Below, piece after piece: positions 1,152 to 6,586 of a stretch of 64,000 bases of DNA; the stretch's first letter is position 1; each line of letters starts with the position of its first letter. Both the position numbers and the translations under genes were made by a program. Where the stretch lies: positions 2,325 to 66,324 of the forward strand of contig DATJQH010000137.1 in the NCBI GenBank assembly GCA_035505955.1. Reading direction: 5' to 3'. Source of the stretch: Rhodocyclaceae bacterium. GTDB lineage: Bacteria; Pseudomonadota; Gammaproteobacteria; Burkholderiales; Rhodocyclaceae. Under the pieces are notes generated by a model. It was given only the letters and a program-made list of their open reading frames with translations. It was not told the DNA's origin and did no database searches.

Positions 1152-2498
1152 TCAGGAGAATGCATCTGTCATCAGATTGCGCAGCCAGCCGTCGGCGTAT
1201 TCCGCCTCCATCCTGCGATAAAGGCGTGGCACCGGTATGGGTTTCTCCTTGGTGCCGAAAGTCACCGGCGAGATTCCGCTACCGTCCTTGACATAGACCC
1301 ACTGGTTGTTCTCCACGCGGAACAGGTGCACCACTGAAAATCCCCAGTCATGCGCCACGACGCTGTAGCAGGTGTTCGTGTACAGGGGTTTGGGTGCCGG
1401 CAGTCCGTTGAAGCGGGCCGCGAGGCTGGCGGCGACGACCTTTGCCTGGGAGTTGGCCATGTGCGCCGATTTCGGGAAGCCGTTGCCCGTCGACAACTCG
1501 CCGCCAACACAGGCATCGCCGATGACGAAGATGTCCTTCTGTGCCGTCGACTCCATGTTCTCGGGCTTCACGGCGCACCAAGCGCCCTTGAAGTTGGCCA
1601 GGCCGGCATCGACAGCAATCCTGCCCGCGCGATGCGGAGGAATCACGTTGATCACGTCGCACTGGATGTCGTCGAACGCCGTGTGACACGTCATGGCTTC
1701 GGCATCGACGCGTTCCACCTTGCCGCCAGCGGCCCCCCCGATCCATTCGATCATGCCATCCGACCCGTAGCCGTAGAGCGCCTTCCACGCCTGCTCGAAC
1801 AAGGGCCGCTTCGAGAAGGAGTCGTTCGCATCGAGCAGCAGGATCTTGACCTTCTTCTTGCCGTGGCTCTGACAGTACATCGCCACCTGGGCGGCGCGCT
1901 CGTACGGGCCAGGCGGACAGCGGAACGGCGCCGGCGGCACGGCGATGACCATGCGACCGCCGTCGGGCATCGCCTCGATCTGCTTCTTGAGCAGCAGCGT
2001 TTGCGGGCCCGCCTTCCAGGCGTGCGGGATGCGGCTCTCCGCCAGGTCGGCGTTGAGTCCCTGCACGGCGCCGAAGTCCAGCTCGACCCCCGGGGCCACG
2101 ACGAGCGCATCGTAACCGAAAGTGCCGCCAGTTCCCGTTGTCACGGCCTTCTTCACCGGATCGATACCGACGACTTCGTCGTGCACCACTTTGACGCCGC
2201 GTTGAGCGAGGCCGCCGTAGCCGGTTTGCAGCGTCGAGATGTCGCGTGATCCAGAAAGGACTTCGTTGGACAGCGGGCAGGACGTGTAGCGCGTGCCCCG
2301 TTCGATCAGCGTGACTTCGATGCCCGGGTCCAGCAGGCGCAGGTACCGTGCGGCCGACGCGCCGCCATAACCGCCACCAACCACCACGACGCGCGCTTTC
2401 GCTGCCACGGCGCGTGCCTGTCGGATGGTCAGGACGGCAGTCCCCGCGGCGGCCGTCACGGCCTTCAGAAACGTACGGCGATCGACGTATGGATTCAT
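1152..2498 (-). CDS. fccB: flavocytochrome c sulfide dehydrogenase, flavoprotein subunit (FccB/SoxF-like)
   Basis: Twin-arginine signal (DRRTFLKAV) and FAD fold VVVVGGGYGGASAARY. Family-typical FRCPPGPYERA segment. Sits directly downstream of a dihaem cytochrome c gene. The ATG at 2496-2498 is preceded by AGGAGG; the tracked start at 2504 is a TTG two codons upstream. Confidence 0.8.
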   Translation of the reverse strand: MNPYVDRRTFLKAVTAAAGTAVLTIRQARAVAAKARVVVVGGGYGGASAARYLRLLDPGIEVTLIERGTRYTSCPLSNEVLSGSRDISTLQTGYGGLAQRGVKVVHDEVVGIDPVKKAVTTGTGGTFGYDALVVAPGVELDFGAVQGLNADLAESRIPHAWKAGPQTLLLKKQIEAMPDGGRMVIAVPPAPFRCPPGPYERAAQVAMYCQSHGKKKVKILLLDANDSFSKRPLFEQAWKALYGYGSDGMIEWIGGAAGGKVERVDAEAMTCHTAFDDIQCDVINVIPPHRAGRIAVDAGLANFKGAWCAVKPENMESTAQKDIFVIGDACVGGELSTGNGFPKSAHMANSQAKVVAASLAARFNGLPAPKPLYTNTCYSVVAHDWGFSVVHLFRVENNQWVYVKDGSGISPVTFGTKEKPIPVPRLYRRMEAEYADGWLRNLMTDAFS

Positions 2499-2510
2499 TG
2501 CCAAACCTCC

Positions 2511-3086
2511 TTACCTGGACTGGGCGCCGAAATAGCGGGCGGCAGCCGAAACGTCAGCGGGCTTCATCTCGTTTGCCGCCCGCCGCATCTTCCGGTGCGG
2601 CATCTTGAAATCCGCGCTGCGGAACTTCTCGAGTTCCAGCTCCATGTACCTCGACCATTGGCCGTTGATGCGCGGCGCGTCGACATCGGGGTCGTTCCCG
2701 CTGATGCCGTGACAATCCTCGCAGGATTCGGACACGGCCGACCTGCCCTTCTGCATCACGTCCGCCGGAGCACGCTGCGGCGCCGGCACCCAGGGCTGCC
2801 TGGAGAAATAACCGGCCAGTGCGTCGAGCTCATCGTCGCTGAAGCCCTTGACGATGCGGTTCATCGTGACGCCGACGCGTTCATCGTACTTCCACTGCTT
2901 CATGATCCTGGCCAGGTAGTCGCGCGGCAGGCCGCCGATCGATGGCATCGACGGCCCGGCACTGACGCCGCCGACGCCGTGGCAACCGTTGCAGGTGCGC
3001 GCCAGTACCTCGATGTTGTTGTCGTGCGCGGCAGCGCCGCCGACCAGGCCGGCGGTGACAAGCGCGATAAGGGATGTCTTCGACAT
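2511..3086 (-). CDS. fccA: dihaem cytochrome c subunit of flavocytochrome c sulfide dehydrogenase (FccA/SoxE-like)
   Basis: Signal peptide MSKTSLIALVTAGLVGGAAA. Two CXXCH motifs (CNGCH, CEDCH). Adjacent to fccB. The ATG at 3084-3086 has a GGAG 8 nt upstream. Alternative ATGs at 3098 and 3101 would overlap the upstream stop codon. Confidence 0.75.
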   Translation of the reverse strand: MSKTSLIALVTAGLVGGAAAHDNNIEVLARTCNGCHGVGGVSAGPSMPSIGGLPRDYLARIMKQWKYDERVGVTMNRIVKGFSDDELDALAGYFSRQPWVPAPQRAPADVMQKGRSAVSESCEDCHGISGNDPDVDAPRINGQWSRYMELELEKFRSADFKMPHRKMRRAANEMKPADVSAAARYFGAQSR

Positions 3087-3097
3087 GATTTTCTCCA

Positions 3098-5142: not shown

Positions 5143-5224
5143 GTGCATCGCGTGGCACGCATCCAGTTGTTTTTTTGCCCGTTTTGCGATTTCTTGGTTG
5201 CATGGGCCCGCAAGGACACCGCCC

Positions 5225-5248
5225 GATAGTGCCGTGCGCGGCACTATC
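5225..5248. promoter_or_regulatory. perfect inverted repeat GATAGTGCCG-N4-CGGCACTATC; candidate enhancer (UAS) for the adjacent sigma-54 activator
   Basis: Read directly from the sequence: 10-bp arms and a 4-bp spacer. It sits about 85-105 bp upstream of the -24 element, a typical EBP distance, and lies between the divergent genes. Confidence 0.55.
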
Positions 5249-5278
5249 AAAATGCCATCCATGGCACAATGGATATCC

Positions 5279-6586
5279 ATGAATGCCCGCCCAGACCAAG
5301 TGCTGCCCGAATTGATGGCCATGGCCGACGCGCTGCCGGAGCCACGCGTTTTCCTCGGCGCCGACTATCGCGTACTGGCGGTCAACCAGGCCTGGCGCCA
5401 GGAGTTCGGCGACCCCGGCGACCTCGCAGGCCGCTCCTGCTACGAGATTTCGCACCACGCGAACGCGCCTTGCGACCGGTTCGGCGAATCATGCCCGCTC
5501 AAGGTCAGTCGGGAGCGCGACGAGCCGGCGCGGGCACTGCACGTTCATCACACCCCGCGCGGCCTCGAACACGTTGACGTCGAAGTTACGCCGATCCGGG
5601 ACGGCCGAGGCAGGACGATCTTTTTCATGGAAACGGCGCGCATGGTGCGACGCGCCCGCAGCCAGCCATCGGCGAAGGGACTGGTCGGACGCTCGCCAGC
5701 GTTCAATCGCATGCTCGAACTCATCGAGCGCGTCGCCCCTTCCGACGCCACGGTGCTCCTGCTCGGAGAATCCGGCGTCGGCAAGGAACTGGCCGCCCAG
5801 GCACTGCACGACGCCAGCCGGCGCACGCGCGGACCGTTTGTCGCGGTGGACTGCGCCGGCATGACGGAAACGCTGGCGGGCAGCGAACTCTTCGGCCACG
5901 AAAAAGGTGCCTTCACCGGTGCAGTAAGCCGCAAGACAGGCCTCGTCGAGGCGGCCGCGGGCGGCACGCTGTTCGTCGACGAAGTGGGTGACATTCCGCT
6001 TTGCCTGCAAGTAAAGCTGCTGCGCCTGATCGAGTCCGGTACTTTCCGCCGCGTCGGCGGACTCGAGCCGCTGCGTGCCGACTTCCGCCTGGTCCTGGCC
6101 ACACACCGCGACCTGGCAGCGATGGTGGAGGACGGAAGTTTCCGGCGCGATCTCTACTACCGCGTCAGCGCCTTTCCGATTCACGTGCCGCCACTGCGCG
6201 AACGCAAGGAGGATCTGCCGCTGCTCGTTGACTCGCTGCTGGCGCGGGTAAGCCGGCGCCGCCTGCGCATGCATCCCGACGCGCTGGACCGGCTCAAGGG
6301 GCATCGGTTTCCGGGCAACGTGCGCGAATTGCGCAACCTGATCGAACGCGCCGCGCTTCTCGCCGACAGCGACACCATCCTGCCCGAACACTTGCCGGAA
6401 GCGATCGGGGAAGTAGCCAGTCCGCCGCATGGTGGCAAGGGGCAGATCGTGTCACTGTTGGAAGCCGAACGGCAATACCTGCGCTGGGCGGCAACGAGCC
6501 ATCAGGGTGACCGCCGCGAACTGGCGGCACGCCTGGGCATCAGCCCGCGCACGCTGTTCCGGAAATTGCGCGAGTCGTCGGCCTAG
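5279..6586 (+). CDS. sigma-54-dependent transcriptional activator (N-terminal PAS-like Cys-containing sensor, AAA+ domain, Fis-type HTH); FisR-like
   Basis: Walker A GESGVGKE, the sigma-54 contact loop GAFTGA, and a C-terminal HTH ([17 protein letters not shown]). The tracked ORF start at 5123 overlaps the divergent sigma-54 promoter and the UAS, so I prefer the ATG at 5279. Position 5252 remains possible. Confidence 0.8.

Follow-up and report, generated by a model that had tools for sequence, protein, structure and literature searches.

A nine-heme membrane cytochrome encoded with flavocytochrome c sulfide dehydrogenase: a candidate electrogenic route from sulfide to quinone

The window examined here is a stretch of 64,000 nucleotides from a Rhodocyclaceae bacterium (assembly GCA_035505955.1, contig DATJQH010000137.1), and four genes near its left end are the subject of this report. 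Three of these genes lie on the minus strand and encode a large nine-heme membrane cytochrome, the diheme cytochrome c FccA and the flavoprotein FccB, while the fourth is divergent from them and encodes a sigma-54 activator (Table 1). An earlier note on this DNA, made from its sequence, had described the first three as closely packed and co-directional, and both their coordinates and their spacing were confirmed. The cytochrome gene and fccA are separated by 11 nucleotides if fccA begins at ATG 3086, or overlap by 1 nucleotide of the stop codon if it begins at ATG 3098, and a gap of 12 nucleotides separates fccA from fccB. The large cytochrome, FccA and FccB very probably form one functional unit.

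The large cytochrome gene has a ribosome-binding site, GAGGAG, 10 nucleotides 5' of its ATG. The product had been described as carrying a signal peptide, nine CXXCH motifs and about six transmembrane helices, all of which were found. A motif count placed the CXXCH motifs at residues 43, 82, 104, 157, 185, 216, 241, 271 and 299, and all nine are invariant across 32 homologues. The c domain matched the Pfam families Cytochrome_C7, MtrC-MtrF_II-IV and Paired_CXXCH_1, and the best match of residues ~40–225 to a solved structure was chain A of PDB entry 28pb, a 278-residue 'Cytochrome c' (profile E value 2.3e-15). No curated full-length family for the large cytochrome was found in Pfam or NCBIfam, which returned multiheme repeats and sub-threshold matches only. 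The full-length AlphaFold2 model had a predicted local distance difference test (pLDDT) score of 58.8, with values of 30–50 in the c domain.

The membrane domain was remodelled alone using AlphaFold2, giving a pLDDT of 77.7 and a predicted template-modelling (TM) score of 0.72. Hydropathy and the two AlphaFold2 models placed the helices at residues 326–362, 384–408, 425–456, 500–524, 536–565 and 614–643. As judged from sequence and models, the domain is built of an extra helix A, modelled as the connection to the periplasmic c domain, a four-helix diheme-b core of the FdnI/HydC type (helices B–E) and an extra helix F. The family profile of the C-terminal domain matched E. coli FdnI (1KQF_C), the gamma subunit of formate dehydrogenase-N, with an E value of 7.6e-14. 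Foldseek gave 1KQF_C as the sole significant match for both models (E values 1.5e-4 and 4.9e-4, probability 1.0, TM-score 0.67, ~239 aligned columns), with the hydrogenase cytochrome b HyaC as the second match at a probability of 0.69–0.85. FdnI was reached by the family profile only; a single-sequence search of the PDB with the whole cytochrome returned nothing for the membrane domain, and the single sequence scored 24.7 against TIGR01583 (FdnI), for which the cut-off is 115.85. Precomputed matches to PF01292 (Ni_hydr_CYTB) are present in some homologues of the large cytochrome. The sequences YFRRF before helix B and KRRR after helix C give a topology that agrees with the positive-inside rule.

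In the profile alignment His18, His57, His155 and His169 of FdnI, which in this numbering we take to be its axial heme ligands, fall on H390, H432, H545 and H560 of the window protein, respectively. His57 and His155 of FdnI reportedly hold the periplasmic heme, and His18 and His169 the cytoplasmic heme. Among 53 family members, extending to ~30% identity, H432, H545 and H560 are invariant and H390 and H349 near-invariant. The earlier note would have given up its reading of this domain had there been no b-heme-ligating histidine pattern or quinone-site homology, and the four FdnI histidine positions proved to be conserved. The FdnI loop containing N110, G112 and Q113 aligns with WTYW(Q/E)(K/R)FDYW, the most conserved motif of the family and the one picked automatically as the search pattern for loci; the residues themselves differ. 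This loop alignment suggests a quinone site at the cytoplasmic face. Further conserved histidines include H349 (nucleotides 3992–3994), which is situated in helix A without an FdnI counterpart and is near-invariant superfamily-wide, and H411, H446, H565, H589 and H591, which are invariant inside the subclade. These additional histidines may ligate a third membrane heme, or make a proton or quinone contact.

By sequence the large cytochrome is a member of the CbcL/MtrH/MtoC family and belongs to a subclade of sulfur oxidisers. The family has been defined by 3–23 N-terminal CXXCH motifs, six transmembrane helices and conserved membrane histidines, and its members have been proposed as inner-membrane quinone oxidoreductases in a family described as bidirectional (Zhong and Shi, 2018; PMC6295460). 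MtoC has been proposed to be a quinone reductase fed from the periplasm (PMC8805035). Table S2 of PMC6295460 already includes close relatives of the window protein, from Thiohalomonas denitrificans, Candidatus Thiodiazotropha, Sedimenticola, Thiocystis violascens, Thiocapsa and the Riftia/Tevnia symbiont; the neighbouring genes considered in that study were those of c-type cytochromes only, and FccB is nowhere mentioned. Among the candidates scored in a 90%-clustered database there were 2,850 matches to the large cytochrome, and a 50%-clustered library contained 743 clusters at E < 1e-30, with lengths of ~400–1,100 residues and the C-terminal domain in common. The identity to a Thiohalomonas protein (P0117) was 65%, and a 659-residue protein of Thiohalomonas denitrificans is present in the same Table S2.

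The spacing of the nine hemes is 39-22-53-28-31-25-30-28 in the window protein and in the sulfur-oxidiser members of that table, 40-25-51-31-31-25-30-28 in MtoC (Daro_1404) and 23-25-23-24-29-28-43-28 in CbcL (GSU0274). The CbcL clade was represented by a Syntrophales protein (P0248) which has the heme spacing of GSU0274 and was used as its proxy; the alignment of this protein with the window protein spans 637 columns and has an identity of 30% (BLASTP E value 1e-87). Since homology is full-length but the heme spacing differs, the window protein is a family member and not a CbcL orthologue. The earlier note had assigned it the architecture of CbcL and called for comparison with CbcL and with FdnI/HydC. 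Homology to both the CbcL clade and FdnI was obtained, and the nine hemes and six helices stood, but CbcL orthology did not, given the spacing, the identity of only ~30% and the nearer relationship to MtoC and MtrH.

CbcL shares the overall plan of a signal peptide, nine CXXCH motifs, six transmembrane helices and conserved membrane histidines. It differs in the spacing of its first five hemes (23-25-23-24 compared to 39-22-53-28), in its genetic context, which is one of extracellular electron-transfer genes rather than fccAB, and in oxidising quinol, while quinone reduction is the direction proposed for the window protein. The nearest named relatives are MtoC (Daro_1404, Galf_2006) and MtrH (Rfer_4073), which are of the same length class and have almost the same heme spacing, with differences at positions 2–4 (40-25-51-31 compared to 39-22-53-28 in the first part of the chain). 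Their genes belong to mtoAB/mtrAB clusters and iron oxidation supplies their electrons via MtoD, whereas the donor encoded beside the window protein is a sulfide dehydrogenase. FdnI (1KQF_C), HydC and HyaC have the four-helix diheme-b core in common with the window protein; electrons enter FdnI from the periplasmic side and its quinone site is on the cytoplasmic side, making a redox loop. In the window protein, which is ~18% identical to FdnI, the core is fused to a nine-heme c domain and followed by an extra C-terminal helix, and the donor to the b core is a chain of c hemes instead of the iron-sulfur subunit that serves FdnI.

The other two products of the operon are by sequence a genuine flavocytochrome c sulfide dehydrogenase (FCSD), for which sulfide-dependent activity is predicted. 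FccA, expected to be a diheme cytochrome c, has two CXXCH motifs and matched the PDB chains 3VRD_A (E value 1.3e-23) and 1FCD_C (4.3e-22) as well as the Pfam families Cytochrome_CBB3 and Cytochrom_C. FccB had been called a flavoprotein of the FccB type exported by the twin-arginine translocation (Tat) pathway, and this assignment held: the Tat signal, with the motif DRRTFLK, was detected by TIGR01409, and residues 37–449 matched 1FCD_A with an E value of 1.2e-113. Pfam matches to FCSD_central (3e-43) and FCSD-flav_bind (3e-14) were also obtained, and structures of sulfide:quinone oxidoreductase (SQR) were matched at 1e-10 to 1e-11. Three cysteines of 1FCD are conserved in FccB (Cys42, Cys161 and Cys337; motifs TSCPLSNEV, FRCPPGPYER and NTCYS), the first being presumably the link to flavin adenine dinucleotide (FAD) and the other two the redox-active pair.

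The FccAB proteins of Allochromatium vinosum (1FCD) and Thermochromatium tepidum (3VRD) are homologous to those of the window, with the same cysteines, a diheme FccA and the gene order fccA-fccB. Classical FccAB is soluble and reduces soluble cytochromes c, whereas in the window it adjoins a membrane cytochrome. In A. vinosum the genes are flanked by Alvin_1094 and Alvin_1095 and not by a nine-heme cytochrome, and fccAB (Alvin_1092/1093) is co-induced with both neighbours up to 175-fold on pyrite (PMC11267869). Alvin_1094 is uncharacterised and Alvin_1095 has been described as a four-heme cytochrome (PMC11267869); the two may be a non-homologous counterpart of the nine-heme partner.

The gene neighbourhood of the cytochrome was examined in a scan that used one genome per species and yielded 246 confirmed relatives, of which the best 80 were inspected. 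In 65 loci fccA and fccB are directly downstream of the cytochrome on the same strand, and in 6 they are adjacent but divergent. The contig ends after fccA in 2 loci and right after the cytochrome in 1, and fccAB is not found nearby in the remaining 6. Thus fccAB adjoins the cytochrome in 71 of the 77 informative species genomes; the earlier note had called for such a neighbourhood search. Chance adjacency was rejected in view of this frequency. The carriers include Rhodocyclaceae, Thiobacillus, Chromatiaceae (Thiorhodococcus, Thiocystis, Lamprocystis), Sedimenticola, Thiodiazotropha, lucinid symbionts, Thiohalomonas and magnetotactic Rhodospirillaceae, so that the triplet spans Beta-, Gamma- and Alphaproteobacteria, with flanks that are otherwise unrelated. 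Candidatus Nitricoxidivorans, Thiohalomonas and Candidatus Thiodiazotropha, for example, have the same gene order within wholly different flanks. Between Beta- and Gammaproteobacteria the identity is ~62–67% for the cytochrome, 45–50% for FccB and 32–38% for FccA, making the membrane partner the best conserved of the three.

A neighbour-joining tree placed the divergent loci and those without fccAB in one clade of Hydrogenophilales/Thiobacillus, across which fccAB is divergent or absent. A monoheme cytochrome c of ~115 amino acids precedes the large cytochrome in five loci of this clade (L046, L056, L066, L067 and L072), and six further loci belong to it (L031, L044, L050, L059, L076 and L079). 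This arrangement suggests a different or additional periplasmic donor. A 647-amino-acid open reading frame with 11 CXXCH motifs was also observed in the Tepidiphilus metagenome-assembled genome of this set (L066, 11708–13651, minus strand), a few kb from the cytochrome gene.

Berben et al. reported the fccAB contexts of diverse sulfur oxidisers without conserved neighbours (PMC6382920). A search of full-text literature, with subscription journals mostly outside it, found no paper linking fccAB to a cytochrome of the CbcL/MtoC type. FCSD, the CbcL/MtoC family, the FdnI fold and FisR-type control are each known singly, and it appears to be their conserved combination that has gone unrecognised.

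The operon had been described as sigma-54-controlled, with a -24/-12 promoter and a divergent activator upstream. Within the window the -24/-12 pattern by itself is not rarer than chance (24 matches compared to 29 expected, with two mismatches), and the promoter call rests instead on conservation. The sequence GGCA-N8-T.GC shows no variation among 8 orthologous upstream regions, in which conservation is otherwise only 49%. A stricter pattern places the element at -83 to -115 relative to the ATG in 9 close relatives, and the gammaproteobacterial loci are essentially devoid of it. The description therefore stands for the close relatives, where the promoter is conserved, and does not extend to the gammaproteobacterial loci. 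Control of the sigma-54/FisR-like kind is a lineage-specific regulation that lies outside the conserved core.

Two inverted repeats of the form GTGCC-N6-GGCA(C/T) stand 90–130 nucleotides upstream of the -24/-12 element, and we infer that they are binding sites for the activator. In site 1 the sequence ATTGTGCCA...GGCA is invariant in the 8 orthologous regions, and a regular-expression search found the repeat in six related loci as well (L001, L006, L007, L012, L013 and L014). The columns of site 2 are partly conserved in the ortholog alignment. The activator matched the Pfam families PAS_4 (9e-11), Sigma54_activat (5e-64) and HTH_8 (3e-7), as expected of a sigma-54 activator, and its start was corrected: ATG 5279 is most likely the start codon rather than ATG 5123, because the start codons of the 8 orthologous regions align there.

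The activator looks, from its sequence, like a sulfide or persulfide sensor of the FisR type. Its sensor domain contains three cysteines, C54, C65 and C72 (nucleotides 5438–5494), that are invariant in 17 homologues, and their C-x10-C-x6-C spacing equals that of C53, C64 and C71, which we take to be the corresponding residues of Cupriavidus FisR. FisR activates sulfide-oxidation genes in a sigma-54-dependent manner, and the cysteines of its regulatory domain contribute to sulfide-dependent expression (PMC7315123). FisR of Cupriavidus pinatubonensis and Acinetobacter baumannii shares the architecture, the regulatory cysteines and the divergent placement from a sigma-54 sulfide-oxidation operon. 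The known FisR regulons, however, are pdo-sqr-tauE detoxification operons, and that of the window consists of fccAB and a membrane cytochrome.

The likeness to FisR was assessed through a Paraburkholderia homologue as proxy. The proxy is 47% identical in the sensor and divergent from an operon for an SQR-family flavoprotein, TauE, two Sulf_transp proteins and a cytochrome b561. Its gene call is truncated, the short intergenic region contains no recognisable -24/-12 element or inverted repeat, and a search with the activator sensor domain returned short fragments only, making the link to FisR indirect. In Candidatus Nitricoxidivorans (L001, 4864–7752) the activator is followed on the same strand by a 68-amino-acid open reading frame and a 424-amino-acid SQR-family flavoprotein, so that there the fcc module and an SQR-like enzyme may share a regulator. 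The cysteine triad and the SQR-family and TauE neighbours of the homologues make induction by sulfide or persulfide likely in this lineage.

Table 1. Positions of the genes, domains and signals at the fcc module of the window, in window coordinates.
Feature	Position	Strand	Remarks
carA, carbamoyl-phosphate synthase small subunit	~1-1023	minus	GTG start; runs off left edge
Possible operon end, hairpin CAGGACGGG...CCGTCCTG then TTTCC	1050..1088	minus	65-100 nucleotides after fccB stop
carA promoter, sigma-70-like, TTGCCT-17-TATAAT	1129-1101	minus	
fccB	1152..2498	minus	Tat-exported flavoprotein; Tat motif DRRTFLK
fccA	2511..3086	minus	two CXXCH, diheme cytochrome c; alternative ATG at 3098
Large cytochrome gene	3098-5038	minus	646 amino acids; open reading frame list
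Six-helix membrane domain	3098..4063	minus	residues 326-646 and stop
Proposed heme b ligand H560	3359-3361	minus	FdnI alignment
Proposed heme b ligand H545	3404-3406	minus	FdnI alignment
Proposed quinone-site motif WTYWQRFDYW	3518-3547	minus	residues 498-507; FdnI loop alignment
Proposed heme b ligand H432	3743-3745	minus	FdnI alignment
Proposed heme b ligand H390	3869-3871	minus	FdnI alignment
Periplasmic nine-heme c domain	4064..4963	minus	residues 26-325
Sec signal peptide of large cytochrome	4964..5038	minus	residues 1-25, AGA/S cleavage; sequence and hydropathy
Sigma-54 -24/-12 promoter GGGCATGACCATTGCT (GGGCAT-GACCA-TTGCT)	5127-5142	minus	89 nucleotides upstream of cytochrome ATG
Putative upstream activator site 2, GTGCC-GCGCAC-GGCAC	5229..5244	minus	~108 nucleotides upstream of -12 element
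Putative upstream activator site 1, TGTGCC-ATGGAT-GGCAT (GTGCC-N6-GGCAY)	5252..5268	minus	inverted repeat
Sigma-54 activator	5279..6586	plus	435 amino acids from ATG 5279; PAS-type sensor, AAA+ domain, Fis-type helix-turn-helix

The module is situated between carA and dapB (window 1023–7389), the latter lying beyond the activator gene. In E. coli dapB and carA are direct neighbours. The G+C content is 0.60–0.63 in the module and 0.65–0.70 around it; together with the E. coli arrangement this makes the 5.5-kb module look like an inserted island. The wholly different flanks in other genomes likewise give it the look of a horizontally moved element. The hairpin that possibly ends the operon was kept in the centroid fold, its region having a z-score of -0.27, and it was not called by a terminator scan. 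A plus-strand open reading frame at 40–1089 was rejected as a high-GC artefact without a family match.

No mto, mtr, porin, decaheme or outer-membrane conduit genes were found near the module, either in the window or in the related loci, and with the conduit genes absent an extracellular electron transfer reading of the module was rejected. No further sulfur genes were found elsewhere in the window, the remainder of which contains housekeeping genes and genes for fatty-acid degradation. The latter form a complete cluster at 43496–52278 (acyl-CoA dehydrogenase, thiolase, FadB-type multifunctional enzyme, FadL and acyl-CoA ligase), and two tandem TonB-dependent receptor genes are located at 15056–19533. 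These genes give the host the look of a heterotroph or mixotroph, and not of an organism specialised in sulfur lithotrophy.

Beyond what was observed, namely the genes present, the homologies of their domains and the conservation of ligands, synteny and promoter, we propose, at somewhat better than even chances, that the four genes form a sulfide-responsive respiratory module which passes electrons from sulfide to quinone in an electrogenic manner. The earlier note had likewise read the linkage as wiring sulfide oxidation to the quinone pool, or as its reverse, and the computational checks that it named all favoured its interpretation. Rising sulfide or sulfane sulfur would act through the FisR-like activator on its two GTGCC-N6-GGCAC sites, opening the sigma-54 promoter for transcription of the cytochrome-fccA-fccB operon. 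FccB, exported together with its FAD by the Tat pathway, would oxidise HS- to sulfane sulfur in the periplasm and release protons outside. Electrons would pass to the two hemes of FccA and on to the nine c hemes of the large cytochrome, then cross the membrane through the b heme near the periplasm (H432/H545) and the b heme near the cytoplasm (H390/H560). Quinone would be reduced beside the inner heme, at a site formed in part by the WTYW(Q/E)(K/R)FDYW loop, and the cytoplasm would supply the protons. The module would in this way be an electrogenic sulfide:quinone oxidoreductase with an FdnI-like redox loop, moving ~2 charges per 2 electrons.

Ubiquinone is the typical quinone of betaproteobacterial hosts. 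The potential of the S0/HS- couple is ~-270 mV and that of ubiquinone ~+90 mV, a difference large enough for electrons to be driven inward against the membrane potential. Monotopic SQR does not generate a potential, and the route from FccAB to soluble cytochrome c bypasses the quinone pool and bc1. The net reaction proposed for the module is the same as that of SQR, which belongs to the same flavoprotein superfamily: sulfide and quinone give sulfane sulfur and quinol. SQR, however, is one monotopic flavoprotein whose reduction of quinone is direct and not electrogenic, whereas the module would use three proteins, thirteen hemes and a transmembrane step.

A functional precedent is provided by Qrc of Desulfovibrio, in which a multiheme c subunit reportedly takes electrons from periplasmic dehydrogenases and quinone is reduced electrogenically. 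Qrc is said to be a cytochrome c3:menaquinone oxidoreductase of several subunits with iron-sulfur clusters and an NrfD-type membrane subunit lacking heme b; the membrane subunits of the two systems are unrelated.

The large cytochrome could instead act as a periplasmic hub that passes electrons from FccAB to cytochrome c, cbb3 oxidase or Nir/Nor/Nos, with the b domain serving mainly as an anchor or overflow valve. Soluble cytochromes are reduced by canonical FCSD, nine hemes exceed the need of a simple membrane wire, and in the Hydrogenophilales/Thiobacillus clade the cytochrome is paired with a small monoheme cytochrome c and not with fccAB. The pattern of conservation points the other way: the membrane domain is better conserved than the c domain, and the four heme b ligands and the FdnI-loop motif are kept to 30% identity, which speaks for the domain being a catalytic quinone module and not an anchor. 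We therefore consider the hub unlikely.

A further alternative, which we regard as rather improbable, is that the genes are linked by co-regulation only, with FccAB detoxifying sulfide via soluble acceptors and the cytochrome belonging to a separate sulfide-tolerant respiratory branch or to extracellular or periplasmic electron transfer. Regulons of the FisR type do bundle several sulfide-response functions (PMC7315123), the CbcL/MtrH/MtoC family is usually framed in terms of extracellular electron transfer, and physical contact among the three proteins is a proposal. However, outer-membrane conduit genes are absent from the vicinity. The genes also lie side by side in 71 of 77 genomes from three proteobacterial classes, at spacings of 12 nucleotides or less and amid otherwise unrelated flanks, and it is difficult to account for this unless their functions are directly coupled. 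Finally, it is very unlikely that the chain runs in reverse, with quinol oxidised by the b/c cytochrome and FccAB forming sulfide from polysulfide or stored sulfur when oxygen is absent, for although CbcL is a quinol oxidase in a family described as bidirectional (PMC6295460), synteny indicates no direction and many carriers store sulfur, the transfer from ubiquinone to the S0/HS- couple is strongly uphill, FCSD is known as a sulfide oxidase and induction through a FisR-like sensor suits the removal of sulfide and not its production.

Several points weigh against the proposal of an electrogenic sulfide:quinone module. What we infer from genomes comprises the existence of the complex, the direction in which electrons flow, the position of the quinone site and the induction by sulfide. 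The heme b content of the large cytochrome is a prediction, as it is throughout the subclade, and the single sequence scored 21.3 bits against PF01292, below the threshold of 30.1. Residues N110, G112 and Q113 of FdnI line its menaquinone site only on our assumption. The c domain is poorly modelled by AlphaFold2, and its docking surface therefore cannot be judged. To our knowledge the only genetically studied relative is CbcL of Geobacter, a quinol oxidase that works in the opposite direction. One clade has the cytochrome without fccAB, which indicates that the cytochrome can work with other donors, and only the closest Rhodocyclaceae relatives share the sigma-54 control. In A. vinosum, a mutant lacking fccAB oxidises sulfide normally, and the role of FccAB in this organism was called unresolved in 2024 (PMC11267869). 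Since fccAB of A. vinosum is without the cytochrome partner and its mutant is normal, the cytochrome is not a universal acceptor for FCSD.

The in vivo role and the electron acceptor of FCSD have long been debated, and a dedicated membrane partner is a concrete, testable candidate answer for the lineages that carry it. This partner is encoded beside fccAB in more than 70 species, including Sedimenticola, the Thiodiazotropha symbionts, Chromatiaceae, Thiobacillus and Rhodocyclaceae. A wider statement, which we put forward tentatively and at less than even chances, is that in many sulfur-oxidising Proteobacteria, the lucinid and tubeworm symbionts among them, FCSD docks onto a cytochrome of the MtoC/CbcL type as an electrogenic sulfide:quinone oxidoreductase and does not mainly feed soluble cytochromes.

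If the proposed module operates in this manner, it would provide a third route from sulfide to quinone or to cytochrome, beside SQR and soluble FCSD, and the decades of debate on the physiological role of FCSD would have their answer. More energy would be conserved per sulfide than via SQR, changing the energy-yield estimates for sulfide oxidation, and the entry of electrons at the level of quinone would ease reverse electron flow in autotrophs and provide low-potential electrons for CO2 fixation. The CbcL/MtoC family would then be a general adaptor from periplasm to quinone, and annotation and metabolic models should no longer read its members as markers of iron cycling.

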